DNA of 29,539 nt from Macrostomum lignano (taxonomy: Eukaryota), in NCBI GenBank assembly GCA_002269645.1, contig NIVC01001314.1:1-29539 (forward strand), written 5' to 3'. Under the pieces are notes generated by a model, which did no database searches, had not been told where the DNA came from, and saw nothing but the letters and a program-made list of their open reading frames with translations. Shown in pieces: positions 2,997-25,272 of this stretch. Numbering within the stretch: position 1 is the first letter of the stretch; each line of letters begins with the position of its first letter. The position numbers and the translations under genes were made by a program.

Positions 2997-3068
2997 CCAT
3001 AATGAGGTGGAATTAGGATTATGATTTATAAATTTTAACTGTCGAGTGAAACGCGTACACCCAACAAC

Positions 3069-6000
3069 ATGCTAATTCATGCAGGCATTCAATTCAGCTC
3101 GGCTATTCACGCTAGTGCGCATGATGACACGCTGCAGGTCAGACGCTTCACTCCAGCATCAAGAGATCTCGAGCCATTTCATTTTTTATCATCAACGAAG
3201 TTTGCAGTGCTACAGGCTGTTGAGATGAGATTCGATTCATCCGAGAATAATTCTATTCGAGCGCAGCTCAAGTTCAACATCAGAATGGTGAGAATCAAGG
3301 AAGCTGCGGTAATCAATGCAGAAGATAAGTGGATCGCATGCGGTCTTGAGCTTCTCTCTGATCTAAGAGATTTTGAATTGTGGTGGTTGCAGCAGTTTTC
3401 TGAGCTGGAACGCAAGATTGATGCCTACAATTCAAATGGGAGCGGTTGGATAGTTGAGCAAATCAACTATTTTGATCTGTGCTCTGCCCTCACTGATCGC
3501 ATTCGCTACTATCGTGGACGATGCGCGAATTTTTCTTTGCCCAATCAGCTGGCCGTTAAGAAGGCCATAATCAACCCACCGAGCGATGGAAACAATTGCT
3601 TTCTGTTTGCCTGTCTCGCTTACCTGCACATCAGAGATCCAGGTGTGATGAAGTCTTGCCATCGACTAACAACTTACAGCAGATGGTTGGATGAAATCGA
3701 TCTGAGCGGCATCGCACTACCAGTCGCAATTTCCGATTTAGACGTTATAGAGGAAAAGAATTCCGAAATCTGTTTCACAGTTTTTAGCTGGGAAGATGAT
3801 GAGGCCTATGTCATTCGCCAGCCTCTTCCTGGGATTTGTGCCTCTCGCAAGGTTATTCCTCTACTCTTGCTTCGCAACTCCAGCTCCGATGATGCTGATG
3901 ATGATGATGGTGGTGATGAGAATTGTGGGACTGGACACTGGTGTGCAGTTTCGAACCTGGACCGGCTCCTGAACAGCAAAAAAGGTCTGAGGAATCGCAA
4001 ATGGTGTGAGAAGTGCATTTCTCCGTTTCGATTCCAGGAAGAGTTGGAGCAGCATCGAGACAGCTGCAATCCTCAACTGAAACCAGCCATCATGGAGCGC
4101 ATGCCTGATGCAAGTAGCAACACAATGCAGTTCATGGCTTGGGAAAAGACAATCAGTCCCCCATTTGTTGTCTACGCAGATTTTGAAGCTCTGAACACCC
4201 CACGTGAACCAGTGAAGCCTGAAAGAGAAGTTACTGTCACCAAGTTAACTGAGCATGTACCTGTAGCTGCTGGCTACATTGTTATTCCAAGAGAGGGTAT
4301 GAGCAGCAAAATTCTGAGGCCGAGTGAGGATGTTTTCCTCTGCAGCGGACCCAATCCGAATTCTGTCGTGAAACAGTTTTTGGCCTCACTCGAACGTCTT
4401 GCTCGTGAAGTTTATGGTTGGAATACCGAGTTTAGTCATCAGATTGCTGACAGAAACAGTGATGACAACAGGCGCAGCTTTCAAGATGCCACACAGTGCT
4501 ATTTATGCAATGCAGTGTTCATTTCATCTTCTGACAAGCACTGGGATCACGACCACCTCAGCGGTGAATACAAGGGTGCTGCCTGCGCTTCGTGTAACAA
4601 GCTTGCTCGGCTGAAACGGCGATTTTTGCCAATAGTTTTCCACAATCTTCGCGGATATGACCTGCATTTGATTTTCTCAACTGCGCTGGGTGACATGACT
4701 GGTTGGAGGGTGAGCGTCATCCCCCAAACTGCTGAGTCGTACCTCTCCATGAGGGTCGAGTTCCAGATTGATGAGTATGAGAAAGATGGCGTAAAAAAGC
4801 CCCTGTTTTTCACGCTACAATTCATCGACTCACTGCAATTCCTACACAGCAGTCTCTCTCAACTTATTAAGAACTTGCCGGAGGACAACTGCCCCATCAC
4901 TAATGCGATGCGATCAAAGTATCCAAATCTCTCAAGCGATGTACTGTTTAGTAAGGGAGTTTTCCCTATGATTATCTCTCGAATTTGAATGTGCTTGATG
5001 ATCGCCAACTACCAAAAGTAGAAAGCTTTTTTAACCGACTCACCAACAGCCACTGTACCGAGGCGGAGTATCGGCATGCGCAGAAGGCCTGGACTGAATT
5101 CGAATCTACAACATTGCGCGATTACATGCTCTGCTACTTGGAGCTGGACATCAGGCAACTAGCAGATATCTTTGAAGGGTTTCGAAGGCTGAGTTTGCAG
5201 GAAGACAAGCTAGATCCGGTGCATTTTGTGTCAACTCCAGGCTATCATTCGCTTCTGCACTAAAGTCTTCTCAAGTCAAGATCGAACTGCTAACTGACCT
5301 CGAGATGTATAAAATGTTTGAGAAAGGAATTCGGGGTGGAATGTCTTTTGTCAATGTACATCATGTCCAGAGCGAAAGTAGTGATGATGATAATGAACCA
5401 GCAGGTAGGAGTTTACTGGCTGTTGATGCTAATAACCTTTATGGTCATGCGCTCACAATGCCCCTACCTGTTGGCGGCTTTCGCTGGCTCAGTCAAGAGG
5501 AGCTGTGCTCCTGGTCCGAGTGCCGCTTTCTTTCCCTGGATGATGACGCTCCAATCGGCTACCTTGTCGAAGCGGATTTGCTCTACCCAGCCGAAATCCA
5601 CACGGCAACGGAGGATCTTCCATTCGCCCCAGAGAAAAGGTGTCCGAATTTTGAAGAATTTCCGCAGTACATGCGAGAATTATGGGTACTGCTTCAACAT
5701 GACAATGATCATTCTCAGCATCATCAGCAGCAGCAGCCCGACGCGAACACGACTGAGAATCCTACCGTTGCGCGCTACCGTGGAGTACAAAAATTAATGC
5801 TCACATGCCACAACAAGTTTTCCTATGTACTGCACTCGTCTGCTCTCCGATTCTATCTATCGCACGGAATGAAGTTGCATGGGCTCCACAGGATGATCGA
5901 ATTCAGGCAAGAACCTGTCTTCGCGGACTACATTAAGATGAATAGCGAGAAGCGCTCTATGGCGAAAAATGATTTCGAGAAGGATTTCTATAAACTGAAA

Positions 6001-6824
6001 AATAACTCCCTGTTTGGCAAAACAATGGAGAACGTGCGCAAGCGGCGGGACATCAGAGTGTGTACTGACAAGAAAAAAGCCAAGACTGTTTCTTCTCAAC
6101 CAAATGTCGCATCATTCACAATCATTACGCCGTCACTCAGCATCTTTGAGCTTCAAAAGCACGAAGTAACTCTTGATCGCCCAATTTCATGGGGCAGTGT
6201 GTTCTAGATCGCTCCAAGATCATCATGTATCGACTTTACTATGACAAAATAAAACCCATGCTAGAATTCCGTGATGGAGCAAGAGTTCGAGTTTGCGGTG
6301 GCGATACAGACTCGTTGTTTTTGAGCTTAGAGAACCTTAGTTTGCAGAGAGAAGTGCTGCCAATCCTGCATGCCGAAGGCCTCTTGGACACCTCCAATTT
6401 TTTCACTAATCATCCTCTCTTCTCGAATCGGCTAAAGGCCAAGCTAGGCTGCATTAAAGATGAAGCTGGTGGACTGCAACAGATTGAGTGGGTGCTGCTA
6501 AGGCCCAAGCTCTATTCTTTCCTCGCTGAAAGCTCGGCGGCATGCAAAGCAAAAGCAAAAGGCATCCAACGAAGCGTGCTGAAGAATGAAGTCTCCCACG
6601 ACGACTACGTCAAGATTTTCAAGGGGGCTTCAAAGCTGTCGCTCACTGTTCGTCGAATTGGAAGTGAGAAACATCGCGTTTTCACCATTGAGCAACGTAA
6701 GCTCGCTCTCAGTATCTGGGAGGACAAGCGAGCGTGGACTGGCTCGAACTCAAGTCTTCCGTTCGGCCACTTTCAGCTGTTAATCAGGGGTAGTCCGAAA
6801 AGGACAGCGGACTGCTTAGAGTGA
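3069..6824 (+). CDS. polB: Protein-primed family B DNA polymerase (pPolB), 3 frameshifts
   Basis: Motifs in order: NGSGW, DGNNCF...GHW (OTU-like Cys/His), C2HC zinc finger, YADFEA (Exo I), CYLC...DHDHLSGEYKGAACASCN (Endo VII/HNH-like), FHNLRGYD (Exo II), KGVFP|YDY, YLELDIRQLADIFE (Exo III), DANNLYG, KLKNNSLFGK, GGDTDS, RPKLYS, KAKG. Frames join by adding one base at about 4965, 5242 and 6186. Confidence 0.96.
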
Positions 6825-7507: not shown

Positions 7508-7513
7508 TTTATT
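7508..7513 (-). terminator. AATAAA polyadenylation signal downstream of TBP-like gene
   Basis: AATAAA on the minus strand about 25 nt after the TAA at 7539. Confidence 0.5.
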
Positions 7514-7538: not shown

Positions 7539-8098
7539 TTAGCACAGAAAACGGACAAGCAAGGAAAAGTCGGAAATTAGCATGCTCATTGTTTTTGCAC
7601 CACTGAGAACAAATGAGCCATTGTGAAAAAGCAGGCATTTGCAGAAGCTTAGTTTGCAGATCAAAGCAGAAAATGATTCTGGCTCATATTGAGCACTTGG
7701 TAAAGTGTTTACAAGATTAGCGAGGGGAAGTGCTCTGCACAAGTCAATTTCCCATGAGCAGTAATAGTTTTAATCCGCACATGCACAGTTGATGAGGCAG
7801 CAGTTGAGCAGGCACTCTGCGATGCAGCATAGCCACGAAGCGACGAGCGGCCCTGACTGAGGCCGAGTAGCTCCGGGCGCCACAGATACTCAGTTGTCCA
7901 GTCGGATAGAGCAATAGAGTCACTCTGGGATTCCGCATCCTCTTGATAAGCACTCGGGGCCAGACGGGGCGATAGATGACATGAGCCATGCTGAGAGCCA
8001 GTTCCCGCAGAGGCAATGGGCACCCCTGCTCCAGCAAGTCTCAGATCCACGCCGCCGACCAGATTGGTCACTCGCAGGGCTGTCGCAGGTGTACTCAT
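7539..8098 (-). CDS. TATA-binding protein (TBP)-like, 3 frameshifts, about 185 aa
   Basis: Joined frames give MSTPATALRVTNLVGGVDL..GCPLPLRELALSMAHVIYRPVWPRVLIKRMRNPRVTLLLYPTGQLSICGARSYSASVRAARRFV...VRIKTITAHGKIDLCRALPLANLVNTLPSAQYEPESFSALICKLSFCKCLLFHNGSFVLSGAK. This aligns by eye with both TBP core repeats (NIV..V.LGC.LDL / Y.P.RF.AVIMR.R.P.TTALIF.SGK...TGAK / YEPELFPGLIYR...LLIF.SGK.VLTGAK). Shifts at about 8025, 7805 and 7749. Confidence 0.85.
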
Positions 8099-8611
8099 TT
8101 AGAGAGTCCTTTCTGTCAGTGGTGCTGTCTTTGCGAGCTTTTGAGTGGTGCGGGCACACCTCGCTTCTTAAGTTGATACAGAACTTCGGTTTCAGCCAGT
8201 TGTAGTACAGTAATACATTTTTCACTGCACAACCAGTATCAGATGCTTGAATCAAAGGTGATCCCAGATCCTCTAGGTTGTACACCTGTCTGCCAAGCAG
8301 CTCAGTCAGAAAGATGGACTTTTTCACCCCGCTTGTCCAGGTGGGACCGTAAGCAATGTTTAGAATGTCATTAGCCAAATGCATGTACGGTCGGATCCAT
8401 CTGTCCACTTGAAATGATGCAAATTCTTTGAGAGCTTTCTGTAATGTACTTGCATCTCAGGTGAGATTCTGTCCCATGAGAACGGAGAGGCGTACACGTG
8501 ATGAGTGATATGGTAACTGCCAGCCCGGACTTGGGCAATGGCCAGCTCCTTCACAACGAAATCTCTGCTCGATCTCTCGCGTGGGAAGCCTTGGAAGTCA
8601 ATATAGTTCAT
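8099..8611 (-). CDS. Conserved Maverick protein, putative DEDD/DnaQ-like exonuclease fold (1 frameshift; true stop uncertain)
   Basis: YIDFQGF...FVVKELAI...PFSW...HHFKWTDG joined at about 8390 to PYMHL...TSGVKKSIFL...VYNLEDLG...CAVKNVLLYYNWL. Resembles the DxQGF-KELA protein I recall from invertebrate Mavericks; the nuclease fold is inference. Confidence 0.6.
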
Positions 8612-8623
8612 GATCGGATGGTT

Positions 8624-9346
8624 TCAAGACGCAAGATGTCGGGAAGCCGACTCAGTTCCCCTTCTTAAATAGTTTTTTTTCCTGCTCAGGTGTAGCCAGG
8701 CTCTCTCACTCCCGAATCCCTTAACTGTATGATGTGCAGGGGTGGCCTCTGGAGAAACAGCCGGTTTAGAAATTAGCTGCCTTACTGACTTTCCTATAGC
8801 CGAAGCTGGGATGTTAAGCTTTTTGTCTTGAAGCAATGAGACAAACTCACTCCAGCCTACCGGCTCGTTGGCACATTTCGAATCCCTCACCGCACTGTGA
8901 AACAAATCCAGGATGTTTGAGGAGGGTATTGTCTTCCCAGAAATTTGCGCCTCGCCATTTTCGGACACCTGAATCAGAGAGGGATTGCCAGATAGGATGG
9001 CCCATAGACTGCGGGCTCTCGCTTTAAACTTCTGCGGCACGGATTGGGTGATCTTTTCCCCCCAGCTGCTTGGTGCAATATCTGTTTTCAGCATCTTTGC
9101 ATCACTCGCAGGTACCGCACCATCCTTTCCAGTCCGCTTGCGCTTGACCAGCAAACTCTTCATCGCATCATGGTACATGGCAGCTTTCACATCGTCTGGG
9201 CAATCCTCGGCAAGCAAAATATCATTGCATTTCCTCTGCGCATATCTCACAGCAGTGTCCATTTCAGACTCGACTGGCTTCAAATTCTGTGTGAGCATGT
9301 CGTACTCTGACTTGGGGATCAGAACCATTTCTGAGAACTTATTCAT
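8624..9346 (-). CDS. Conserved Maverick hypothetical protein (probable virion-associated)
   Basis: Intact 240-aa ORF; MVLIP N-terminus, ITQSVPQKFKARARSL, ENGEAQISGKTIPSSNILDL, EPVGWSEF...LNIPASAIG and C-terminal KGFG...WL are typical of this Maverick family. Confidence 0.75.
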   Translation of the reverse strand: MNKFSEMVLIPKSEYDMLTQNLKPVESEMDTAVRYAQRKCNDILLAEDCPDDVKAAMYHDAMKSLLVKRKRTGKDGAVPASDAKMLKTDIAPSSWGEKITQSVPQKFKARARSLWAILSGNPSLIQVSENGEAQISGKTIPSSNILDLFHSAVRDSKCANEPVGWSEFVSLLQDKKLNIPASAIGKSVRQLISKPAVSPEATPAHHTVKGFGSERAWLHLSRKKNYLRRGTESASRHLAS

Positions 9347-9649
9347 TTTGCTTCTTTTTCTTCACTAGCTTTATTAGAATGTAGAGAATTTTGATAAAAC
9401 CCGTATTTAGCAGATCCGCAGTTCTTCTATGTGTAGAAATTTTGCGGATTATTTGCTTTTGCTTCACCAGCGCTGCCTTTTCAGTGAGTGAGAACGACAG
9501 AGTGTTTTGCAATAGGTTGTAGCAGGCCTCAATGAGAAATTCACGTACGGCTTTTGGACCCGCTCTGATCAACAGACGTTTAAAGCTGATGGAATATTTC
9601 GGTGACGCGAGAACATCAAACAAACTTTCATGTGAGTCAAAGTTTCCAT
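9339..9649 (-). CDS. Small basic conserved Maverick protein (core-like), 1 frameshift
   Basis: ATG at 9649; adding one A at about 9627 gives METLTHMKSLFDVLASPKYSISFKRLLIRAG...LIEACYNLLQNTLSFSLTEKAALVKQKQIIRKI...TGF; stop overlaps the next ATG. Confidence 0.65.
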
Positions 9650-9696
9650 TATCATTAGTGTTGCAGAATATAGAACAAATGGCGAAATCTCGGCTG

Positions 9697-10354
9697 TTAT
9701 TCTTAAGTGTAAACAGGTGGGGTCGCTGATTGGGCAGGATTCGAGCCCGGACCGCAGCTCATCAGGGGTGGAAGGGTGAAAATCCAGGAGCAGGTAGGCT
9801 CCCCTGCCGTGCGATGTCACGTGCTTGAACACTGACAGCAGAAAGCCGGGCTTCTCAGCAAAGCACTGCCTGCCCAGCGCTGCAATCTGCAGCTGGTCTC
9901 TGGGGTTCTTCATGATCACAAAGTACATCGCATTCAGACTCATTGTTCGCAACTCCTTCCCTTTAAAAAATACATTTTGGGTGAGCATAACCAGAAAGCA
10001 GGGCAAATGATGGGCAATTCCAGTGAAAACATTTCGCATTGCAGCAGAATTGGAAGTTTCTTCAATCAGGTCATCAAATACAACCAGGTCATTGGGTCTC
10101 AGTGCGGTCTCGATACTGCTGGGAAATCCCTGCTGCAGGTGCACGCCGAGACTGCTGAGCTCAGAGTGTGCTGCTTGTGAAATCCCGTAGTACCACAGAA
10201 CTCTCCCAGGCTTCACATCAAACAGGACATCCTTGTATTGTATCAGATGTTTCACGAAGGTTGTCTTTCCTGCATTTGTAGGCCCGCTGACAATCATGCA
10301 GCTTCCCTGTCGCAGGCGCACATCATAACAGTTTATCCGCTCACGTGTTTCCAT
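9697..10354 (-). CDS. A32/FtsK-like genome packaging ATPase (C-terminus frameshifted)
   Basis: Walker A GPTNAGKT, Walker B LVVFDD, TQNVF, R..SLNAMYFV..KNPRD, YLLLDFHP; adding a G at about 9752 restores LRVRARILP. Stop position approximate. Confidence 0.93.
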
Positions 10355-10387: not shown

Positions 10388-10906
10388 CTAATTAAATTTC
10401 ATTTTTCTTAAGCAAATCTCAAACCTTTGCAGAATTCTTTCATTCAAGTGGCTCTGCTGATTTGCATGGAGGTGCCGCAAAACCGACTCAAACGAGCGCT
10501 TGAAACGAAACTTTTGATAGGCAAACAAGAGACAGAACAAACCGCATTTAGCAGAGTCACAGCTCTGAATTCGATTCACATTGCTACGTAAGTAGAATGG
10601 AGAATACCAAAAGGATTTCAGTGCTCTGTGAATGATCTCTAAAGTGCTGGAGTCCCAGCCCAGAGAGTTAAAGAGTTCTATGGAATTCTCCTTATCAGCA
10701 TAACAAACCACCCAGTGACCGAAGGATGAGCTGTACTGAAGCAGAAAGAAAATAAACTTACATCGAGATAAATTTCTTTTGAGAGTTGCTCGCTGAATAA
10801 AGTTTAAAGCATAAGATGTTTTATTTATTGAATTCAAGACAATAATTAAACAGTTATTTTGTGGCAAAAAGCTTTTAGCCAGTTTAAGCAGTTGAAAAGC
10901 ATCCAT
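10388..10906 (-). CDS. Adenain-like cysteine protease (capsid maturation)
   Basis: GHWVV (His), ELFNSLG (Asn where Asp/Glu is usual), RIQSCDSAKCGLFCLLF (oxyanion Gln and catalytic Cys); intact 172-aa ORF. Confidence 0.88.
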   Translation of the reverse strand: MDAFQLLKLAKSFLPQNNCLIIVLNSINKTSYALNFIQRATLKRNLSRCKFIFFLLQYSSSFGHWVVCYADKENSIELFNSLGWDSSTLEIIHRALKSFWYSPFYLRSNVNRIQSCDSAKCGLFCLLFAYQKFRFKRSFESVLRHLHANQQSHLNERILQRFEICLRKMKFN

Positions 10907-10929: not shown

Positions 10930-12214
10930 CTAGGATGGAAAATCTAGCAGAATCTCCCTGTGCTTGGTGACCTCAATCAGTGAGTCATACAGGCACATAA
11001 CAATCAGAGATACAGGCTCCTCCAGGGCCTGTCGGAAGCGAATCTCCAGCCGCAAATTGCCCTCCTTCTGTCCGTACCACAGGGCCGCTCCCTCAGGCGT
11101 GAGATCGAATGCGAAAGCTGTGTTGCCGTTGGAGAACAACTGGTAGGGGACCCACGGAACCGAGTTGCTAGGGCTGGCTGACTGACAGCTTTTCAGGTAG
11201 TGCAAGTACTCTCTCACGAATGAATTATTCTCAGGTGCAAATGCAGCGTGGCACATGGCTTCACCACCTTTCTTTAGTGCTAGCTGGCTGAGGTTGAAGC
11301 TCTGGAACTCGAAAGGGCTGGAATGGTGATGGCCATTGAAGGCTCGGTGGTTCACGAAGACCAGCATAACGAACTTCGGCAGTTTGCCATGGGTGAATCC
11401 TTCAATGTTTTTTGACTGAATTCCCTGGGGTAGAATAAAGTTTTGCATTTCGGTTCGCTCGATGGGGTAGAGTGCGTTCTGATTGGTCAGTCCCTGCTCA
11501 TGCGCCAGGCTGATGTGAGGCGCCACTTTGACTCGGCGCAGGTTCAGAATGCAGTGGGAGATTTCCATTCGGTAGGCTGTGTTGTTATCATCTGGGGTTC
11601 GAATGGCGAATGCAGCATCACTGGGCATCAGCTTGATGTGCAGGTGTAAATTGTTCAGCAGCAGAACAGGACACTGGAAGATGTCGCTGAGCAGCGGTCC
11701 CGCATACTCCACCCAGCGGGACTCCCGGGTGTCTCTCGGCATGCCCCTCAGCAGCAGTTTCGGGTTCCAGGAAGCCGGCGGGGTAGAACTTCAACTGCTG
11801 AGCATCGGATGAGCTCATGAGAGCTTTTAGGTAGGCATGGTAGGGGTAGAGTTGGTCTCCACCTGATACAATGCGCTGGTTGATGCTCACGATTACATCT
11901 GAGAATGCCGTAGACAGGACAAAGTTTTCTGGGTGCACCCCACTGTCTCTGCGCTCAGTGACAACTCCATCGGCATTTCGAACCTCCTCCCTCATCAAAG
12001 CCCCGCCAAGCCGGACTAGGCGACAGCGAATATACAGGAATGAGCTCAGCAGATCAGTGTACTCATCAGCCGATGGATGACAGTCGAATTCAATAGGTGA
12101 GTTAGTAGCAATAGAGTTCACGGGGTGAATATCAACATATGTGGATTTTTCAATGGCAGTCTGCAGCATGGGGGACTTGAACAAATCGAGTCTCGGGTTG
12201 AATCCGTAAGCCAT
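10930..12214 (-). CDS. Double jelly-roll major capsid protein (1 frameshift)
   Basis: LDLFKSPMLQTAIEKSTYVDIHP...PIEF...EYTDL..SFLYIRCRL; YPYHAYLKAL; SDIFQ..VLLLNN; GKLPKFVMLVFV..RAFNG....PFEFQ.FNL; AFDLTP...EGNLRLEIRF. Frames join near 11735 (net +2 in a GA repeat). Confidence 0.9.
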
Positions 12215-12216
12215 TG

Positions 12217-12627
12217 CTATGAGAGCGAGTCCAGAACACGTTTCACAGTCTTTTTGCTCACTTTTTGCTTTCCTTTGCCTGTTTTCTTGCTTTGAGTTTT
12301 AGACCTCCCTTTCTTAGGTTTATTTCGCCCTGACTGGCTTCTTTTCGGTGATTTCTCCGTCTTACTCTTTTTCTTCTTTTTTGTCTGCTTCTTACTGCCC
12401 TGTTTGACTAGTCGCTGCTTTGGTCTGTTTCTATTGCTTCTGCTGTTGCTGCTGCTACCGCTGGCGGTGGTATGGGCTGGCTTTGATAGCGATATTGACT
12501 TTGTGGAAGCTTCTGGAGGAGGCTGGTAAGTCATGATTCCTGGAAAACTCCCACAGCCATAGAGCGCCGGCTTTTGGCTTCCTGCCAGAGTCCCTGAATA
12601 CTGACGAATCAGCTGTTGGTAGTTCAT
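12217..12627 (-). CDS. Lys/Ser-rich basic protein, putative DNA-condensing core protein
   Basis: Intact 136-aa ORF between the capsid genes; LYGCG motif; C-terminal half strongly Lys-rich. Confidence 0.6.
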   Translation of the reverse strand: MNYQQLIRQYSGTLAGSQKPALYGCGSFPGIMTYQPPPEASTKSISLSKPAHTTASGSSSNSRSNRNRPKQRLVKQGSKKQTKKKKKSKTEKSPKRSQSGRNKPKKGRSKTQSKKTGKGKQKVSKKTVKRVLDSLS

Positions 12628-13433
12628 TGTATTAGCCTTTCCCGAATATGAACTGTGAGCAGAACAGGGCTGCTGCTCCGAGCAGTCAGTGAGTAGCCAA
12701 AGATGTCACGCAGTTGAAATCTAATGCCATGTAGAAAATTAGCTTTCTGAATCGGGAAGAAAATTGCTTTCTTAAACACTTTGCTCATGTAGCTGCCCCA
12801 TTCGACATCGGATGACATGCTCACAGTTCGCAGCACGGAGTTCCAGTTACAGTTTGTTCGCTCCACAATGCTGCAGTGCAAGTTGATCAGGTTGGTGGGC
12901 GGACAACCGATGCAGCAGAGTGACACTTGCCGTCCGGGTGGGATCTTCACAGGCTGGTTTCCGAATCCCAGCCACTGCAGAATTTTACTTGATGGAAGGA
13001 ACAATTCTGCTCGAGCCGTGTTGTTGAGCACTACTGTTCTCAACTCTTGGATTTCAAACTTTATGCCAATATCTCTAGCGCTGCTCCGCCCCATTAAACC
13101 GGACTCATCAGCTTCCATTTCAGACTCCCTTTCGCTCATTGCATCGAAGAACAGTGACTCAGAGTTGGCCAGCAGCTCATTCATGCGCTCAACCAGTTCC
13201 TCCACTCTAGCAAAGCGTCCGGGTTGAAGAACCAGGGCCTCATGCTCTCTTCCATCTGAGACAGTGAAGCAGTAAGGCTCGTCAACATTGAACCATGCAG
13301 CAGGCAGATGGATTTCAGCCAGACCTGCCTCATAGTCCACATTTCGATCCAAGTAAATAGGTGAAGGCAGGTGAAAATGAAAGTCACTAGGAGTACCTTC
13401 AGCATTTTCGCTACAAATGATGATGCTTCTCAT
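12624..13433 (-). CDS. Minor capsid (penton-like, single jelly-roll) protein
   Basis: SDFHFHLPSPIYLD..YEAGLAEIHLPAAWFNV and C-terminal LINLHCSIVE...VLRTV...IRFQLRDIFG...VLLTVHIR match the Maverick minor-capsid pattern; ATG at 13433. Confidence 0.85.
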   Translation of the reverse strand: MRSIIICSENAEGTPSDFHFHLPSPIYLDRNVDYEAGLAEIHLPAAWFNVDEPYCFTVSDGREHEALVLQPGRFARVEELVERMNELLANSESLFFDAMSERESEMEADESGLMGRSSARDIGIKFEIQELRTVVLNNTARAELFLPSSKILQWLGFGNQPVKIPPGRQVSLCCIGCPPTNLINLHCSIVERTNCNWNSVLRTVSMSSDVEWGSYMSKVFKKAIFFPIQKANFLHGIRFQLRDIFGYSLTARSSSPVLLTVHIRERLIQ

Positions 13434-13463: not shown

Positions 13464-14531
13464 TTACACTTTTCTTAAGTCCTTCTCATCCACCCAGTCA
13501 GTGGACTTGTAGCCGGCCCACTTGACGAGATATCGGATCTTACCCTTCCGCTTCTCAGTCTTCAGAACCTTCTCGATTACATACAGCCGCTGCGAGTCCG
13601 GAACAGCTTGCAGCTCATGCTCGTGGAAGAGGCCTCTTATGTCTTCCCCCTTCATGTCTCGAATCCTGTACATGTAGGGATAATGCTTTGGTGCCCTAGA
13701 CACTATGGTGTACACCTCTTCGCTCCAGTTCGCCTTGTATCCCTTCCTGAAGAGTCTGGGTGCATTGGAAATCCGCACTGATTGGTTTTCACAGAACTTC
13801 GGTTTTCTCAGTTTCTCAACTGTCTCAATCGCTTTCCCATCATAAAGGTTCATCCACACTTCAGTCTCGTTTGCTTTGCTGACATTCATTGGTGTAGTCT
13901 TGATGCTTCTGTGGAAAGTATTGTTATAGGACTTGACCAGTTTAGGCAGCACATCAAGCCATTGTAGAGTGCTGTTGTGAGTAAAGTAACGCCACATCTT
14001 GCTTTTTAAAGTTCGATTCCATCTTTCAATTATGGCTGCTTTGTGCACACTGCTAGTTGGAAACGCCAGAATCCCCCGGTCTATGCAGAACTGGCGAAAA
14101 ATTGCGTTGACAAACTCCTTTCCCTGATCTGTGCGGACAGTGCGCGGCTGCCGCTTTGAGCTCTTCAGCATGCTCTCAAACGCAGATTTCACTTCTGCCG
14201 CGCTCTTAGACTTCAGTGCTCTGGCCATTGCAAATTTAGACAAAACATCAATGCAGGTGAGAATGTATTTATGCCCGCGATTATACTTTGCAAATGGAAT
14301 CATTTCCACCAGATCCATCTCCCACTGATCATCAATGGCCCTCACTATTATTGGCGCCCTTGGAAATCGTACTCTAGCTGGCTTATGCAGAGTGTGTACT
14401 GGCTGCTGACTTAGCCACTGCTCAATGCTCTTGACTCCAATATGCTCGCCTCTTTTTCGCAGTTCACGTTGCAGTTTTGAAGAACTGCAATAGCTCGCAG
14501 GCTGATTTGGGTTGAAATAAATTTTTTCCAT
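13464..14531 (-). CDS. int: Retroviral-like (rve) DDE integrase with C-terminal chromodomain
   Basis: Intact ORF; WEMDLVEM (D), RTDQGKEF (D), IERWNRTLK (E); chromodomain YVIEKVL...YLVKWAGY..TDWVDEKDL; ATG at 14531. Confidence 0.95.
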   Translation of the reverse strand: MEKIYFNPNQPASYCSSSKLQRELRKRGEHIGVKSIEQWLSQQPVHTLHKPARVRFPRAPIIVRAIDDQWEMDLVEMIPFAKYNRGHKYILTCIDVLSKFAMARALKSKSAAEVKSAFESMLKSSKRQPRTVRTDQGKEFVNAIFRQFCIDRGILAFPTSSVHKAAIIERWNRTLKSKMWRYFTHNSTLQWLDVLPKLVKSYNNTFHRSIKTTPMNVSKANETEVWMNLYDGKAIETVEKLRKPKFCENQSVRISNAPRLFRKGYKANWSEEVYTIVSRAPKHYPYMYRIRDMKGEDIRGLFHEHELQAVPDSQRLYVIEKVLKTEKRKGKIRYLVKWAGYKSTDWVDEKDLRKV

Positions 14532-14700
14532 TTTCAGAAACAAAGAAACACATTTTTATTTTTAGGTTTTCTTAAGACATTGAAAATGCATAGCGCATGT
14601 GAAAGCAAGCATATATTTTTTTTCAAACAAAGAGATGGAAAGCAGGTCTGGATAAATAGCTCGTAGCACAGAGTTTGTCTCAATGTCAGAGGGTCTGCAA

Positions 14701-15465
14701 TCAGTCGAAGCACGGCCTGGGCAGCTTCATGGCATCCAATCTGCGCAGAGCGAACGGCGGCTGCTTGCGTTTCCTGGCGTTCTCAGCGGCGGCTGCTTGA
14801 GCTCGGAACTGGTACCAGACTGGGTCCTCTTGCAGATCAGTGTCCTGCCGAGGAATCGCTCCAGCTGCAGGCTTGGTCAGTTGCAGAGGCGTTGAAGTGG
14901 CAAACGCTGTGTCGATTTGCAGATTGGATGGCATGCCAGCCTCGCCAGCAGCAGCAGCAGCATCGTCCTCCGCCTTCACTACCGGCTTGGTCTCTTCCGC
15001 GTTTTCGCCAGCACCGTCTTCATTTTCGATGCTGTCGGAGGAAGATCCCGACTCCAGCTCGTATGCATCGGAAATCTCACGTGGAGCCGATAGCTGCTCG
15101 TCGATCCAATCCGCGTACTGCCACAGCTTTCGCCACAGCGGCGGTGTCAGCGGCACGGTGTTCCGCTTAAGAAACTCGTCGCAGCAGTCCTCCGGCAATC
15201 GCTTTAACCAGATAATGCCGTTTTTCACTTCGATGAACTTATCGAAGCCGAGTTTGACAACCTTTGGCTGTTTGTCCAAGGCCGCCTTGACAAGCGATCG
15301 CTTCAACTCCTTGAGCTTCTCCCACTGACGGATGTTCAAATTGAAGCCGGGGACTCCAGGTTTCAAACTCGCAGTGCTGCCATGTCGGTAAAATTTTCTG
15401 ATAGCAATGAACATAACTCCTTCATACTCCTGTATTTGGAGTTTATATCCTTCGCCGATGTCCAT
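14701..15465 (-). CDS. Tandem PC4/Sub1 (p15)-like ssDNA-binding/coactivator protein
   Basis: IGEGYKLQIQEYEGVMFIAIRKFY...LKPGVPGFNLNIRQWEKLKE matches PC4 (IG..[20 protein letters not shown]...MKPGRKGISL..EQW..LKE); weaker second copy LGFDKFIEVKNGIIWLKR...VPLTPPLWRKL..YADWIDEQL; acidic tail and RKRK basic patch. Confidence 0.78.
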   Translation of the reverse strand: MDIGEGYKLQIQEYEGVMFIAIRKFYRHGSTASLKPGVPGFNLNIRQWEKLKELKRSLVKAALDKQPKVVKLGFDKFIEVKNGIIWLKRLPEDCCDEFLKRNTVPLTPPLWRKLWQYADWIDEQLSAPREISDAYELESGSSSDSIENEDGAGENAEETKPVVKAEDDAAAAAGEAGMPSNLQIDTAFATSTPLQLTKPAAGAIPRQDTDLQEDPVWYQFRAQAAAAENARKRKQPPFALRRLDAMKLPRPCFD

Positions 15466-15543: not shown

Positions 15544-15551
15544 CTTATATA
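15544..15551 (-). promoter_or_regulatory. TATA box (TATATAAG) heading the leftward gene block
   Basis: Consensus TATA about 80 nt upstream of the PC4-like ATG and just inside the terminal repeats. Confidence 0.5.
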
Positions 15552-15587: not shown

Positions 15588-15749
15588 AACATAGGCCTAT
15601 GTTCTCTCACTAAGGCCCCATGGAATTTCCATGGCTTTCCCTGCGGCAGAGTCCACCAATGCATTTACATAGGCGCTATGTTTACACACATAGGCCCCTG
15701 GTTTTCCCACGGAAATTCCTGCGGCAGAGTCCACATTTCCCCTACTACT
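15588..15749. repeat. Candidate right terminal repeat region (two about 78-bp imperfect copies plus ACTACT end)
   Basis: cataggc(g)ctatgtt...ggcccc...cctgcggcagagtccac at 15590-15656 and 15668-15734; ACTACT at 15744-15749 is the reverse complement of the AGTAGT Maverick terminus. Confidence 0.65.
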
Positions 15750-18845: not shown

Positions 18846-19205
18846 CTAAAATATGAAAATTCGCATGAAATTTTCCATTAAATTAGATTTCAGATTAAGA
18901 GGATGTACACTCAGAAGTCGAGCATAAACAGCTGAAAGTAAAAGGACTTTACACTCCGATTTTCCGAGAAATGAAGCCGGTAAGCAACAAAGATTTGCCG
19001 TATCGCTGATGCATTTCGCATGCTTTCGAGAACGGATTTTTTCTCAATTTTGTCTATGGCCAAACCCCAGTTCAGCGCTATGCGTTCTTCAGAGCATCCT
19101 GAATGCACTGGCGATGCGAAAACATGTGTTTCTAAGAAAATTGGGTGCAGCGTCCTTCTAATTCAGTTGTTCATGAAGTCGGATTTAGTGCTCAATAAAG
19201 CTCAC

Positions 19206-19523
19206 TCATCATGATGTACACATAGGTGTAGCCGCCACTGCTGGCCCCAGCGCAGTACTGATACGAGCCCGTGCCGCACGGCTTCATGCAGTTGGCCAGG
19301 ATCTCGGCTGGGTCTGTGATTGGCTGGAAATTCTCCAGCATTTCGTCGTCGCTCAGGCAGGTGCAGGAGGCGCCTTCGACAATCGCCGAGTCAGCCAGAC
19401 GGTGGGTGCAGGTTCTGAGGCACTCCTGCAGAGTTCCGGTGCGCAAGCTGAATGTGTTGTCGGGCTGCTTGAGCTGGTTGGCCAGGCTGCTGCTGTACTT
19501 GTGGCAGCCCCGGTGGTGGCTCC
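19206..19523 (-). CDS. Host gene exon: WSC domain
   Basis: ggcag acceptor and GTGAG donor, phase 1-1 (318 nt); HRGCHK...TLQECLRTC...AIVEGASCTCLS...CMKPCG...YCAG...YVY. Confidence 0.85.
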
Positions 19524-19689
19524 CTGCCAAATTTAGTGCGAATCATTTTAGAACCCACGATGGCATTGTCATTGCTTGCCTATCACGCGGCTAAGTTGGA
19601 ACTGTGACTTTCGGTGCTGTGATGCTATCCGACTTACAGGCCCCAGCAGGCCTGTAAGCTGTTTTAACCAAAGAATAGTCTGTGGTTTT

Positions 19690-20250
19690 AATATAGCTTC
19701 TTGCAGCCCATTTGAGCTCACACGCATTGGTTTTAATCCAAGATACGTTTGCCAATGTAACGGAGCTTTCGTCTATGGTAGCAAGCCTGGCGTCAGCAGG
19801 ATTTAATTTGGTCCATAGCGGCTCCATAGTTTCAGCCTAAGATTTTCATTTAGACGTGACTGCCACAGGCAGTAGGGACAAAAGCAATGCTTCATAATTG
19901 CAACTGCTGCGGAAGAGGAAGATCGGTCTCAAAATCGTGCATGGACCTGATGCTGGACTTTCGAACGAACGCCAAGGGCTTGTGATTGAAGCGGTGTTTT
20001 GACCATGCTAAAATGCTCTTAGCTTTTGCTATAGTTGAGCAGATTGAATTTTTATGTCACCTTGTATTGGTAACATTGAAATTTGCTCAACTAAATCGCA
20101 TTGCACAGCTGTAACACCTGATTGGGTTTCACGGCCGCCATGGACCAAATTAGATGCTGCTGTAAGACGAAAGCTACATTACTTTGGCAAACATATCTTG
20201 GATTAAATTCAATTCGTTAAGCCCACAAGTGGGCTGAAAAAAGCTATATT
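19690..20250. repeat. Degenerate inverted repeat pair (MITE/foldback-like)
   Basis: The reverse complement of 19690-19821 aligns by eye to 20135-20250 (atggaccaaatta...agacgaaagct...ggcaaac.tatcttggattaaa...gggctg...aagctatatt). Confidence 0.7.
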
Positions 20251-20381
20251 GCAGATGAGGTACCTCAGTGTCTGTTTGTCATTACCAGGCCAAAACATAC
20301 GCGACAGCGGGAAATCAGTAAGTTAAGTCAATACGCATTGGTGAGCCATAAAAGCAACAATAATCCATTACCGAAACGCAC

Positions 20382-20642
20382 TTTTTACACAAAAGAACTT
20401 CCTCCGCGTGGTGTCCGAACACGCTGTGCGGTTGGCGTGGACTTTGACACCGTAGTGCGTGTCAAGGCCAAGGTAGAAACAGTTTCGAGCTAGCAGCTCC
20501 TCAGCGGTCATGGTACTGGAGAACTTTTCATAGTTGCTTCCAGCAGGCATGACGCTCCCGTCAAGCAGCTGAGGAAGCAGCTCAATCCAGCTGTGAACGC
20601 CAATGTTGAGCTCTTTTCGGCTTACAAAATAGTGAGTCCAGT
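20382..20642 (-). CDS. Host gene exon: C-type lectin-like domain, C-terminal half
   Basis: ttgcag acceptor, phase 1-1 (261 nt); SWIEL...DGSV...NYEKF...NCFYL...TACSDTTRRKFFCVK. Confidence 0.75.
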
Positions 20643-20722
20643 CTGCAATTTTTAATGGTGTTGACTGAGCGACTATGCCAAGCGCCTAAACTAGCATTCA
20701 GTTTCATAAACCTGAGATGTCT

Positions 20723-21049
20723 GACTCTGAGACGGTGTGTGGTCAAATAGCAGTTTATTTGAAAAATCGCTATTGATCTTTTGAGCTTGTAAGTGTACGC
20801 TAGCTTCTCTGCTAAGCTTTGCCATAGACGGAGGCCATAGAAAATCTTTTGCGTAAGAAAAATGACAGAGCATGCATAGACTCTGAGACTGATCTAACGT
20901 TAAAATTTCTTATGGACCATAGCAGCTGCATAGTTAAGAAACCGTCAATGACCTGCAAGTTTGAAGAAGAAATTCGTCTTCGGATCATCCAGTGCTATTA
21001 CCGAAATTTTTCAAATAAACTGGTATTTGACCACACATGTCTCAGAGTC
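20723..21049. repeat. Short inverted repeat pair (about 47 bp)
   Basis: gactctgagacggtgtgtggtcaaatagcagtttatttgaaaa (20723-20766) vs the reverse complement of 21002-21049. Confidence 0.75.
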
Positions 21050-21934
21050 TATGCTCCTTAAGATTTTTTAAAGCAAAATATTGACTATGGCAGCTGTGTA
21101 TGGCAAAGCTTGGCAGAAAAGACACTTCTGTGCTCAATAACTCGCCTCTGGAGCAATTTTTCGCAACCAAATGTTTGTGGGAAAAACTTACAAATGTTTA
21201 CTGTGGACCTGTTAAATTACTGTGCTAGGCCTAACTGCTAACTCACAGTGAGCGCACAAAGTGTTACCCTTTTTTTTGGGACACCCGTTATAAGCATTCT
21301 TAAGCAGTATTAAGCCAAGGAGTTCTATAATTAGCAACCTGGAATGGAAACAAGTTTTTCAGTTTTACCTCGAGGCCAGACTAGCATAGACAGAGCCATG
21401 ACATTCAGTGCTGGCTCCTTGTTCTTTACAATTGGCGTGGCCTCATGAGGTAAAACTCGTTTCCGCTCTAGATTGCTAATCATAGAACTCCTGGACTTAA
21501 GCTTTACTTTCGAAATATACAAGTTGTAAAAACTTATATGCATAAGAGTTTTTTATTTATTGAAGTCGGCCATAGATAATTGCAGCGGGCGGGCTGCCGT
21601 CTTTAAAGAATAAAAATGATAAAATGATTCATCCATGGCTGCCCTGCATTTCACCCCGTTTCAACAGCCTGGGCTAACTATAACTGTCTATGCCAATTTT
21701 AGGGTTAGTGAAGGCTAGGGTTCATGAAATCGGATTGCCAGCAGTTCAGTATATTGAAATTTCGAATATGTGAAAGGAAACCTTGTAGAAAAATAGGTGT
21801 GCTATCCAAATGTCTATCCAATACTGGCATAAGTTCTGCTTTAAAAGGTTGCAATAGACCTGATCTCTACATTAAAGGCGTAGTAGTTTGAAGATCAATA
21901 GAATGACAGTTTTTATTCAAATGGAAGCACTCAC

Positions 21935-22117
21935 ACTTGAAGAAGTGCTCCTTCATGATGTCCAACTCATTTTCGTCCATGGGAAACCAAAGCACGGAGT
22001 TCTGATGGGCGCAGAGCTCGGCGGAGCCGGTCCAGGCCAGCATGTCGGTGCTGCGCAGGTAGGGCGCGTAGCAGGAGCCGCGGTAGCCGAACCAGCCCGG
22101 GCTGCAGGGGGTGCCGT
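21935..22117 (-). CDS. Host gene exon: C-type lectin-like domain, N-terminal half
   Basis: Not in the ORF track. cctttcctcccag acceptor and GTGAGT donor, phase 1-1 (183 nt); DGTPCSPGWFGYRGSCYAPYLRSTDMLAWTGSAELCAHQNSVLWFPMDENELDIMKEHFFK. Confidence 0.85.
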
Positions 22118-22202
22118 CTGGGAGGAAAGGGTTTGATAAAGCTTTACTTATTATAGGGGTAGCTCAAATCCCCTGAGTTGTGTATACCATCTGGTCTAAG
22201 AA

Positions 22203-22490
22203 TAAGTTTTAGCCTAGTGGTTAGAGCGTCTAATTCACGACTGAAAGGTCGGGGGTTCGATTCTCGACACACCCAGAGCAATTGTGCCCTTGAGCAAGAC
22301 AGTTGCTTCAGTTCACCCAGCTGTAAAATGGGTACTAGCATTAGCTGGGGTAACTGAGGCTGTGTGTGGCGACCCCAGGTCCATGGACTGAACAGCTGTA
22401 AGCAGCCTTCAGATGCGCTGCGCAATAGCTGCGGCTGAGCTGCCGGTTGCACATCTGCCCATTAGGGCAGGTGTAATCAATTATTATTAT
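22203..22490 (+). mobile_element. tRNA-derived SINE with CORE (MIR-like) domain
   Basis: A box tagcctagtgg (22210-22220), B box ggttcgattc (22254-22263), tgtgcccttgagcaag...cttcagttcacccagctgtaaaatggg (CORE-like), (TTA)n tail. Confidence 0.85.
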
Positions 22491-22526
22491 GTTTTTTAGT
22501 CTAATAAGCGTTTGATCGAATTACCT

Positions 22527-22654
22527 GCTGCAGGGACCTGGGGTTTCAGCCATGAATTGCATCGTTATTATCCCGTGTCATTTGTAGGAGCTGCAGGGAC
22601 CTGGGGTTTCAGCCATGAATTGCATCGTTATTATCCCGTGTCATTTGTAAGAGC
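22527..22654. repeat. 63-bp tandem duplication
   Basis: gctgcagggacctggggtttcagccatgaattgcatcgttattatcccgtgtcatttgta repeated with period 63. Confidence 0.95.
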
Positions 22655-22751
22655 TAAACCAATTCATTATTTATTAAGGAGTTCGATAAATTTGATGGCC
22701 CCGCTTGCGTTCCTGTCAAACTGAGCTGCTCAAAGTAGTTCGGAAGCTTAC

Positions 22752-23159
22752 CGATCATGCTGCAGAAAACTCTTGTTCCACTATCAGGGGCCGTGGAGGT
22801 GTTAAAGGTGCCTGTCAACTGGTAGAAGTTGCTCTCGTAGACATCCGCATCTTCCTGCTGCTCCTTGCACGAGCGGAACTTTTTCACCTGCGTGGCCAGC
22901 GTGAAGATGTTGTAAATGCTGCCCGCTCCTCCGCAACTCTCGTTTGATGCTCGGCACTCGAAGTTGCACTGAGCCGCGGCACCTGACTGGCGTTGAATGA
23001 CGTCACTCAGGCAGGTGCACGTGACGTTGCGGATCATAGCGTACAGGCTGCTGGGGAAGGCCTTGCAGTAGGACTTGCAGGCGGCTGAGCTGAGCAGCTG
23101 CATGGTGGTCTCATCCACCACGAGGAGCGGCGGGATCGATGCGACAGAGTAGCAGCCGT
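22752..23159 (-). CDS. Host gene exon: WSC domain plus fibrinogen-like N-terminal motif
   Basis: ctttgcag acceptor and GTAAG donor, phase 1-1 (408 nt); DGCY...ACKSYC...VTCTCLS...CNFEC...SCGG...NIF, then RSCKE...FYQL...RVFCSM. Confidence 0.85.
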
Positions 23160-23440
23160 CTGCAAAGAGCAGCGAACGCTTCTTAAGCAAGTGCTACAGA
23201 ATAACTTAGCAATAAGCATTGTTAACGGAGCGCATTCTGAAAGCCTATGGACTTCTGTGCATCCCAATAAATAAATAATTTAAAATATCAGCATATTAGC
23301 TCTTACTAGCTAGTATCAGTTTTATCTAAAAAAGGTTAAGATTTTTTTCTGCGGGTCAAAAGTTAACTTTTTGGCTTTGAACCAATCACTTTCCAGACTA
23401 ACTCTGCCCAACGCTGCATGCAACAAGCGGGCGCCCTCAC

Positions 23441-24135
23441 CAAACGAGTCGTACACAGAGAAGAAGCCCCAGGGCCCGCTGTCAGCCGTGGCATTTCCGC
23501 CACAGAACTCGGACGCGTTGCACAGCGACAGGCAGCGAAAGTTCCTGGCCTCCAGCAAGCCCCGGCTCAGCACGAACGGAATCGTCTCGTTGGACTCCTG
23601 GTCGGGAACGATGCCAGTGAGGTTCAGGCTGAAGCAGTAGCAGCTGCTGTAGTTGGCGGCGGCCATTTGGAATTTCTGGGTGTAGCAGGCCCGCCTGCAG
23701 TCGCTGACTGACATCGGGGCTGGGAGGCTGCTTTGCAGATGAGTGCTTGAGCCGCTCAGCCGTTCCAAGATTTCAGGCCACGTGAAGCAGCCGCGATAAT
23801 AGGACTGGTCTGCGGTGGAGCGGATTGGGTAATGGGACTGGTCTGCGGTGGAGTGAATTGGGTAATGGGACTGTTCTGAGTTGGAGCGGATTGGGTAATG
23901 GGACTGGTCTGAGTTGGAGCGGATTGGGTAATGGGACTATTCTGAGTTGGAGTGGATTGGGTAATGGGACTGGTCTGCGGTGGAGCGGATTGGGTAATGG
24001 GACTGGTCTGAGTTGGAGCGGATTGGGTAATGGGACTGGTCTGAGTTGGAGCGGATTGGGTAATGGGACTGATCTGCGTTGGAGCGGATTGGGTAATGGG
24101 ACTGGTCTGCGGTGAAGCGGTGGAGTGGAGTAGTC
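23441..24135 (-). CDS. Host gene exon: PTS/mucin-like repeat plus WSC domain (alternative acceptor at 23809 would skip the repeat)
   Basis: YYRGCF...MSVSDCRRAC...AAANYSSCYC...CLSLC...FCGG...FSVYD; GTGAG donor at 23440. Upstream acceptor tcctttttttctgctcc...tgtag at 24136 gives (TSPITQSAPTQ)x9 and needs one added C at about 23802. Confidence 0.8.
23802..24120. repeat. 33-bp minisatellite, about 9.6 copies
   Basis: Unit ggactggtctg(a/c)g(t/g)tggagcggattgggtaatg starting at 23802, 23835, 23868, 23901, 23934, 23967, 24000, 24033, 24066 and 24099. Confidence 0.97.
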
Positions 24136-24309
24136 CTACAGCGATACAGGAGCAGAAAAAAAGGACTCAAGACTGACCTTCCCTAATCGCTACAACTCAA
24201 CCTTGCCGAATGACGAATACCGACCGAATAATCTATCCTCGCCTCGTAGCGAACTACTAATTCTGTGTAAACTGTTTATTTGTTTATTTAAACCCCTGTC
24301 GTTGCTAAC

Positions 24310-24359
24310 CATGCGGGAAAATCACCCCTTCTTCGGCAGGGGACGAACAGTTATGACAT
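24310..24359 (-). CDS. Host gene micro-exon (50 nt)
   Basis: ttttacag acceptor, phase 2 in and phase 1 out (GTTAG donor); KCHNCSSPAEEGVIFPH reconciles the phases of the flanking exons. Confidence 0.55.
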
Positions 24360-24643
24360 CTGTAAAATAGACACATATAAATCCCAAATCCCAAATCCTG
24401 AATTCTTAATCCCGGATCCCCAATCCCAAATTCTTAATCCCGGATCTTATATCGCGGATCCCAAACTGCACTGGAATATTTCAATGTACTTACATTGGCA
24501 CGTGTTCAAGTCGATTGCAGTAGTAAAGTTTAAGTTTTGTGTCCAAATCATTGTACGAATCCTGAATAAAAATACGCGGGCTAAGGCTTATTCCGGTGTC
24601 CAGTCTAAAAGATGACGTTATGAGTAAATGTACATTTCCTTAC

Positions 24644-24884
24644 TTTCTGTTCCAGTCAAACGAGTTCCTGCATTCGTTTTCGATTTCCTGGTCGAATCGC
24701 CGTCCCTTGTAGCCGCTCAGGCAGCGAAAGCGCACCGAGAAGCCGTCAACGACCTCCTGCCTGTCAGCTGTTGGCGCCGGGGAGATAAGCCAGGACTGTG
24801 GGCCCGGCTGCGCGTGCTGCGTCCAGCAAAGCGGAGCTGGCGGAGGAGGAATCTCGGTTGAATGAATTTTTTTCAACTTCAAGA
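24644..24884 (-). CDS. Host gene exon: Sushi/CCP-like domain
   Basis: ttgtccag acceptor and GTAAGG donor (241 nt, phase 1-2); LCW...VDGFSVRFRCLSGY...ENECRNSFDW. Confidence 0.75.
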
Positions 24885-24982
24885 CTGGACAATAAAGCGG
24901 GTTAGCTAATTTGCAGTTTTCTATGCAAATGCATTGACAAGATACGAAATTATCAGCTTTTCCAATTCACTGTACCCTTGTA

Positions 24983-25195: not shown

Positions 25196-25272
25196 CTACT
25201 ACAACTGCAGTCTCTACAGAAATTTCACACACGTTCACACAGTCCCAGCAAATTTATAGTTGGCATAATTAC

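Follow-up and report, generated by a model that had tools for sequence, protein, structure and literature searches.

A TATA-binding protein homolog in Mavericks of Macrostomum lignano and a WTAAGAA word upstream of most of their structural genes

Viral TATA-binding proteins (TBPs) are already known from giant viruses and herpesviruses. According to PMC7221094, the giant-virus proteins tend to lose the acidic residues that contact TFIIB and to bring their own TFIIB, and Table 1 of PMC12529657 lists KSHV ORF24 with Asn at V122, T124 and V161 as a reader of TATTWAA late promoters. For Mavericks, terminal repeats with AGTAGT-type ends and 6-bp duplications are described as hallmarks (PMC8097293), and the eight core genes listed there for vertebrate Mavericks do not include TBP, as the initial annotation of the DNA studied here had supposed in placing TBP outside the core set. 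It had also asked if a TBP has been described in this group; we found one mention, in the Fig. 5 legend of Starrett et al. (PMC8502044; preprint 10.1101/697771), which lists a TBP-like gene in a related element. A text search of one supplement of PMC8502044 gave 0 matches, 10.64898/2026.10.13.758929 makes no mention of TBP, and beyond that legend the open-access literature (figures, subscription journals and Repbase lying outside its scope) contained neither a Maverick TBP nor a promoter word. Likewise, neither a virion nor a late promoter of animal Mavericks is described in the literature covered. New here are a shared WTAAGAA word, a missing element TFIIB and overprinting, the last in both families of elements described below.

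We analyzed a 29,539-nt stretch of M. lignano DNA (contig NIVC01001314.1 of assembly GCA_002269645.1; hereafter, the window), which contains a Maverick with its right end at 15749 and its left end beyond the contig start. The genes and other features of this element are as follows.

3039..6824, plus strand: protein-primed DNA polymerase B (polB), split over four ORF fragments; convergent orientation relative to the TBP-like gene (DNA_pol_B_2, E 2.2e-09)
7508..7513, minus strand: AATAAA downstream of the TBP-like stop; not in all subfamilies
7539..8098, minus strand: TBP-like gene, 187 aa in open copies; window copy with four single-base indels
7770..8611, minus strand: upstream ORF, interrupted in the window and 281 aa long where open; its tail overprints 332 nt at the start of the TBP-like gene in a different frame; 3′ end approximate
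8624..9346, minus strand: 240-aa ORF, function unnamed; positionally conserved in both families
9569..10354, minus strand: packaging ATPase, with P-loop; sub-threshold Pfam matches only, named by position
10388..10906, minus strand: adenovirus-like cysteine protease (Peptidase_C5, E 0.0018, below the curated cut-off)
10930..12214, minus strand: major capsid protein (MCP), double jelly-roll; broken here, open 427-aa copy modeled
12624..13433, minus strand: putative minor capsid protein, from size and position; no Pfam match
13464..14531, minus strand: retroviral-type integrase with chromodomain (rve, E 2.6e-16; Chromo, E 1.1e-4)
14701..15465, minus strand: gene with a PC4 (transcriptional coactivator p15/ssDNA-binding) domain; present in family 2 too
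15616..15749, no strand assigned: right terminal inverted repeat, ending ACTACT; inner edge from the 134-bp repeat of sister copies

The PC4 gene, a second transcription-related gene, adjoins the terminal repeat behind a canonical TATA box in both families (14701-15465, minus strand; L091:2536-3228). The N-terminal fragment of polB contains an Endonuclease VII domain match (4480-4610, plus strand; E 3.9e-07), and tandem CCGATT-type units of 7/8/15 nt lie directly upstream of polB, within the element (2011-2980); the terminal repeats of family 2 contain GC-rich repeat arrays. Outside the element, host gene fragments with WSC/C-type-lectin/sushi-like Cys patterns, recognized by eye, occupy 19190-25600 on the minus strand, and a large 12-nt satellite of AATCAGCACACC-type units runs from 25500 to the contig end at 29539.

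The model of an open natural copy of the MCP (pLDDT 80.7) matched the PBCV-1, mavirus and Sputnik capsids in Foldseek (E 6e-15). Sister copies are bounded by terminal repeats of 134 bp with AGTAGT ends and are flanked by 6-bp duplications, which were clear in three of ten stretch pairs (C106, C2520 and the family 2 pair C2485), the other seven being cut off, ragged or without a distant repeat. Across 20 ten-kb stretches, the TBP gene lay beside the same upstream ORF in all 20, with convergent polB in 18 and close to a capsid gene in 16. Among the other family 1 stretches that contain polB (18), the TBP protein resembled the window-type copy more closely (72-86% identity) than the polB pieces did (40-69%). 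One stretch belongs to a second family, whose TBP (P0167) is 36% identical to that of family 1 and has about 40 genomic matches at 70-100%. The family 2 element carries polB, integrase, capsid, protease, ATPase, the same upstream ORF, TBP and PC4 in a different order, together with terminal inverted repeats and a target site duplication. The TBP-like gene thus belongs to true Mavericks and has a fixed place in two families of them.

In the window itself this gene is broken. The initial annotation had joined three ORF fragments (7709-8098, 7744-8037 and 7539-7742) into an intronless, two-repeat TBP core of ~185 aa. The fragments are present, and the open copy P0001 (187 aa, locus L003) is indeed intronless with two repeats, but the window copy has four breaks and not two: relative to two open natural copies, it differs by single-base indels near 8030, 8020, 7790 and 7750, plus 2 or 5 substitutions. 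Two of the three fragments gave Pfam TBP matches above the curated cut-off (E 1.3e-11 and 6.4e-09), and the 5′ fragment (7709-8098) taken alone gave no Pfam match; we left the fragments unjoined and based the analyses on unbroken natural copies, chiefly P0001. The gene's own AATAAA is found at 7508-7513 as had been claimed, but only 35 of 56 open copies have one within 150 nt of the stop. Most other genes of the window element are broken likewise, which suggests recent decay or errors in the assembly.

A DNA search of the M. lignano genome with the TBP-like gene yielded 137 candidates, and the 40 that were scored all matched at 86-100%. The frame of 187-188 aa is open in 23 of 30 fetched genomic copies, and the gene is open in 18 of the 20 ten-kb stretches, which were picked across subfamilies; the element proteins are 185-201 aa long, and the TBP core spans their full length. 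The closest named database relatives are M. lignano entries (78% and 98%); there are also relatives in Logan (71-74%), one in JGI (51%) and family 2-type proteins in ENA/Logan/JGI. Several copies of both families (C1330, C2038, C5126, C862, C3017, L016, L076) contain fused frames of 358-391 aa that join the upstream ORF to the TBP core, a form also seen in database protein P0015; these could be genuine fusions or indel artifacts. At three places (L043-L045; C860, C1655, C2018), a decayed TBP-like copy of family 1 stands isolated, with no element genes nearby in the 3.2 kb examined.

P0001 shows two Pfam TBP stretches (PF00352, E 1.6e-21), and all 35 of its PDB sequence matches are TBPs. Its AF2 model (pLDDT 94.8, pTM 0.85), computed from a 46-row alignment that includes cellular TBPs, matched archaeal and eukaryotic TBPs in Foldseek (E 7e-14; TM 0.77-0.84), gave Z 20.1 in VIA (rmsd 1.9, 171 residues aligned) and matched giant-virus TBPs in BFVD (Foldseek) at 8-20% identity. 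As modeled, the Maverick protein is a complete two-repeat TBP saddle. We found that the host genome has its own TBP at three places (P0005), a TRF2-like gene at three places (P0006) and, among 150 scored, 138 divergent domain matches. In a quick IQ-TREE phylogeny of 86 rows, from which every second non-element sequence was omitted (70 of 139), 14 element-type proteins, with both families included, fell on one side of a single branch (SH-aLRT 95), with host TBP and TRF2 elsewhere; long branches and weak deep nodes mean that this tree does not fix the origin of the element TBPs. The TRF2-like protein is altered at other positions (F190 to H, F116 to R).

The TBP-like gene is under purifying selection. 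Among unsaturated dS pairs, dN/dS was 0.12-0.39 in the N-repeat (residues 9-108) and 0.08-0.29 in the C-repeat (residues 112-175), as seen in 28 listed pairs of 91, from 14 of 30 distinct sequences; the median pS and pN were 0.13 and 0.03 for residues 9-108 and 0.68 and 0.25 for residues 112-175. These data bear on the idea that the gene is a captured host TBP retrocopy decaying as passive cargo. It is intronless, its window copy is broken and the host TBP ORF, too, runs without interruption across the core, all of which such an origin would explain, yet the element protein shares just 28% identity with host TBP, forms a separate clade, has a dN/dS far below 1 and is kept in two families with most copies open, so that we give this idea virtually no credence. 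A processed pseudogene of host TBP is refuted by the selection and copy data. The interpretation offered in the initial annotation is supported overall, given the strong profile and fold matches, the separation from host TBP and TRF2, the low dN/dS and the presence of the gene in sister copies and in a second family.

We surveyed the saddle and stirrup residues by alignment column in 37 element-type sequences (24 from family 1, 6 from family 2 and 7 from other data sets), numbered as in yeast TBP (host position + 23; residues 39-216 of host TBP align colinearly with yeast 62-239). N69, V71, T112, L114, E186, E188, F190 and F207 are unchanged in all 37, and three residues are replaced alike in all 37 (F116 by Y, T124 by C and N159 by T); in addition, V122 is S or T, V161 is T or S, K120 is Q in 36 of 37 and P191 is S or N in most. 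The retention of F190, F207, N69 and the TFIIB-contact glutamates E186/E188 of the C-lobe, the T at N159 and the Y at F116 are all as first reported, but the W said to replace F99 is not in that column, which holds P in all 37 sequences; W (family 1) or H (family 2) stands one column earlier, at R98, in both BLAST and MAFFT alignments. It is uncertain whether W could stand in for F99, and it could do so by a one-residue loop shift only. The intercalating set of four Phe is thus incomplete (F190 and F207 kept, Y at 116, P in the F99 column), as is the N69/N159 pair of Asn. The P aligned with F99 may deprive the saddle of one of its four intercalators, which could weaken DNA bending. By alignment, the saddle appears changed and more polar (Y at F116, S/T at V122, C at T124, T at N159, T/S at V161). 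Together with the kept stirrup, this suggests a protein that may still recruit TFIIB with altered DNA specificity. The candidate target word and the lack of an element TFIIB, both described below, add weight to this suggestion.

A stirrup that is invariant while several DNA-contact residues differ, and the P in the F99 column, would also suit a protein that does not activate transcription. On this alternative, which we regard as unlikely though worth weighing, the upstream word described below is a weak TATA box for host TBP/TFIID, with the viral TBP serving as a decoy or repressor that titrates host TFIIB or the TBP regulators NC2 and Mot1, or occupies promoters silently, damping host transcription or keeping the provirus quiet. 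However, the invariance of N69, V71, T112, L114, F190, F207 and an aromatic residue at 116 in all 37 sequences, down to about 30% identity, exceeds what a pure decoy would need.

Listing of the 130 nt upstream of each ATG in five elements uncovered a recurrent TAAGAA. On the structural strand of the window element there are exactly seven WTAAGAA sites, each preceding a gene; they are given here with two canonical TATA boxes.

3027..3033, plus strand: canonical TATA box TATAAAT, preceding polB
8165..8171, minus strand: TTAAGAA, 73 nt before the TBP-like ATG, within the upstream ORF (fixed Leu TTA and Arg AGA codons)
8662..8668, minus strand: TTAAGAA, preceding the 281-aa ORF
9700..9706, minus strand: TTAAGAA, preceding the 105-aa ORF
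10405..10411, minus strand: TTAAGAA, preceding the packaging ATPase
12769..12775, minus strand: TTAAGAA, 148 nt before a basic (core-protein-like) ORF
13472..13478, minus strand: TTAAGAA, preceding the putative minor capsid gene
14569..14575, minus strand: TTAAGAA, preceding the integrase
15545..15551, minus strand: canonical TATA box TATATAA, preceding the PC4-like gene

In both families, the word lies 34-148 bases upstream of most structural genes. Specifically, in one element each of subfamily 1a, subfamily 1b and family 2, 7 of 7, 9 of 11 and 6 of 7 sites, respectively, fall 30-150 nt before a start codon, with binomial p values of 4e-6, 3e-6 and 5e-5 that are optimistic because the choice of the word followed inspection of family 1, the blocks are copies related to one another and two starts in family 2 are unlocated. 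The exact word precedes 7/10 (1a), 8/10 (1b) and 6/8 (family 2) genes; none is found before the protease or the 240-aa ORF, and the MCP gene of subfamily 1a has the variant CTAAGAA in its place. The integrase gene, which is not a typical late gene, also carries the word. Among 18 related blocks of 4-6 kb, we counted 104 sense and 2 antisense WTAAGAA sites, i.e., about 1 per kb, compared with 0.21 per kb per strand over 52.7 kb outside the elements. None of 11 one-letter variants displayed a comparable strand bias: the nearest were TTGAGAA (23 sense to 12 antisense) and TTAAGGA (5:1), and other variants gave 2:4 (TTAACAA), 4:3 (TTAATAA) and 18:11 (TTAAAAA). The word precedes the TBP gene in 17 of 19 distinct upstream stretches, and the Leu codon at that place is the rare TTA in 23/23 distinct upstream ORFs, compared with 8/304 other Leu codons.

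Baculovirus-type late motifs read WTAAG, and the baculovirus TAAG acts as an initiator. The TTAAG/ATAAG contained in our word therefore raises the alternative that it is the late promoter of a helper virus, borrowed as virophages borrow giant-virus promoters, with the TBP-like protein separate or auxiliary. Abstracts report a dependence on large DNA viruses for virophages and for some polinton-like viruses. Yet the real starts lie at least 34 nt downstream of the word and short out-of-frame ATGs occur at +6 to +22, a spacing that fits a TATA box and not an initiator; one family 2 site lies only 11 nt before an ATG, and a second site there is at 94. Because two extra A's are conserved and the element has its own TBP and PC4 as well, we consider a borrowed promoter very improbable. 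A LEF-8 search for a helper virus gave 0 matches and is uninformative, as its control also matched nowhere.

Similarly, the protein might bend AT-rich DNA for other ends, either with Brf1/polymerase III or at the element's ends during replication, integration or packaging. That PC4 can take part in replication counts in favor of such a role. The word, however, precedes protein-coding genes and is absent from the terminal repeats, and of the N-lobe basic patch used by Brf1, family 1 retains only a part (R141 is A) and family 2 has lost most. Even with E186 stated to contact Brf1/2 as well (PMC7221094), we judge this use of the protein most improbable.

In TATA register, the word is (C/T)(T/A)TAAGAA, with positions 1-2 loose and the G at position 6 fixed. 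The N-lobe of TBP reads the 3′ half of the TATA box, and if this holds here, the lobe with the most invariant novel residues would face the fixed G. Non-consensus bases at TATA positions 3-6 are the most harmful in the purified yeast system of PMC2396422. Host-type TBP may nevertheless read such a word, as the decoy alternative supposes: the titles of PDB entries 1qn5 and 1qna report wild-type plant TBP crystallized on the single TATA variants G(-26) and T(-30), and the word of family 2, TATAAGAA, departs from the TATA consensus by a single letter. Against this, a G that is fixed at position 6 in family 1 and family 2 alike points to a dedicated reader.

We favor, as probable though well short of certain, the reading in which the Maverick TBP is a late-promoter factor: it would recognize WTAAGAA, engage host TFIIB and deliver polymerase II to the structural genes, while host TBP would start polB and PC4. 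The latter two genes have canonical TATA boxes in both families, and they would be the early genes, started by host TBP at these ordinary boxes. The viral TBP would then read WTAAGAA through its altered polar saddle, dock host TFIIB on the kept E186/E188 stirrup and recruit polymerase II, so that the capsid, packaging and integrase genes would be switched on in a late phase. No TFIIB is found in the element: the TFIIB family (PF00382) was matched at 15 places on 7 contigs, none in the Maverick contigs examined, although a very divergent one may be present among the unnamed ORFs. In family 1, the TBP gene is behind its own word, which would give positive feedback; the family 2 TBP gene is behind a canonical TATAAAAG. 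Dependence of the family 1 gene on its own word would need a bootstrap, which counts against a late factor. Four sequencing runs, presumed to be RNA, yielded contigs that span almost the entire element, and since these include intergenic parts, the runs cannot separate RNA from DNA.

The word before the TBP gene lies within the upstream ORF, whose tail overprints that gene. The overlap is 323-335 nt in family 1 and 389 nt in family 2, with an identical frame offset despite the 36% TBP identity; the exceptions are 2 of 12 family 2 copies, which stop earlier, and one family 1 copy that overlaps by just 206 nt. Synonymous resampling of the overlap predicted 4.6-5.7 stops (P of none ≤0.004). Third-position T is avoided where it would create a stop: 0/13 such sites versus 30/77 elsewhere (p 0.003) and, in a second comparison, 0/17 versus 26/73 (p 0.0015), with 0/12 versus 28/94 in family 2 (p 0.02). 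Past the overlap, T at such sites is common. Amino-acid selection within the overlap acts on the TBP frame, and the overprinted tail is held open but variable. The upstream ORF gave no Pfam, PHROG or PDB sequence match; its N-terminal 150 aa are conserved and begin D-x-(E/Q)-G-F (window 7770-8611, minus strand; L089:1008-1889). As a lead only, ESM Atlas returned unnamed arthropod clusters (0.96) and Maelstrom/DnaQ-type folds (0.88) for this protein.

Across 13 loci, capsid, ATPase, upstream ORF and TBP N-repeat have median DNA identities of 96-98%, compared with 71% for the C-repeat and 62% for polB. There is a recombination boundary between the two TBP repeats, and the N-repeat moves with the word-bearing block, which again speaks against the decoy alternative. 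Dual-coding constraint was considered as the cause of the low N-repeat divergence and rejected in favor of recombination as the main cause, because the whole left block is equally homogeneous. More tentatively than the late-factor reading, and with slightly more doubt than belief, we propose a minimal herpesvirus-like early/late program made up of a 187-aa TBP, a private WTAAGAA word, host TFIIB/polymerase II and a viral PC4, in which overprinting would lock the N-repeat, as the bearer of specificity, to the capsid block with its promoters, and recombination would freely swap the C-repeat. If so, animal Mavericks would be helper-independent nuclear viruses with a natural orthogonal TBP-promoter pair. 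These results bear on how animal Mavericks express their capsid genes and on their need for a helper virus, and a dedicated TBP with a named target word makes simple assays available (binding, start-site mapping, reporters).

Beyond the M. lignano elements, two scans of viral contigs for a TBP relative gave 36 and 18 pattern matches, none of which was confirmed, and phage records gave no match to the TBP-like protein. A metagenome scan gave 13 weak loci; the two inspected (L109, L110) are archaeal-type TBP genes and not Mavericks. These two are divergent, unrelated to the Maverick clade and situated inside restriction-modification and helicase islands, an odd site for a TBP paralogue.

Compared with cellular and archaeal TBPs (PF00352; PDB 1cdw, 1ytb, 1ais, 1mp9), the Maverick protein has the same two-repeat saddle with the eight unchanged residues in common, but it is carried by a mobile element, lacks an N-terminal extension, is 25-29% identical and differs at F116 (Y), K120 (Q), V122 (S/T), T124 (C), N159 (T), V161 (T/S), P191 (S/N) and F99 (P or W). 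TRF2/TBPL1, a TBP paralogue, likewise has altered intercalating residues and a changed DNA preference, but the Maverick TBP does not group with TRF2 in the tree. With other Mavericks/Polintons/adintoviruses (PMC8097293; Starrett et al., PMC8502044), the elements share pPolB, integrase, double jelly-roll capsid, AGTAGT...ACTACT termini and 6-bp duplications, and probably the protease and ATPase too. The TBPs of giant viruses (NCLDV; e.g., ASFV B263R and EsV-1-53) have the same fold at only 8-20% identity; unlike in the NCLDV TBP-TFIIB system, the TFIIB-contact acids of the Maverick protein are invariant and no element TFIIB was found. The TBP mimic of beta- and gammaherpesviruses ("TATT-binding protein"; KSHV ORF24, EBV BcRF1) is a viral TBP fold with polar residues at the V122, T124 and V161 positions, as in the Maverick protein, and the use of a private late-promoter word with host polymerase II, shown or proposed for this mimic in PMC12529657, has a candidate counterpart in the Maverick word. 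ORF24, however, is large and multidomain, contacts polymerase II directly, depends on five further viral factors and keeps all four Phe and N159, whereas the Maverick TBP is a bare 187-aa core that keeps the TFIIB stirrup, is without ORF24-type polymerase II- and ORF34-binding domains and has no partner complex that we found. If the late-factor reading is true, the Maverick protein would be a natural altered-specificity TBP, changed at the same saddle positions as KSHV ORF24, and would represent a third design of viral TBP use, between that of the giant viruses (own TBP and own TFIIB) and that of the herpesviruses (a large mimic with viral cofactors).
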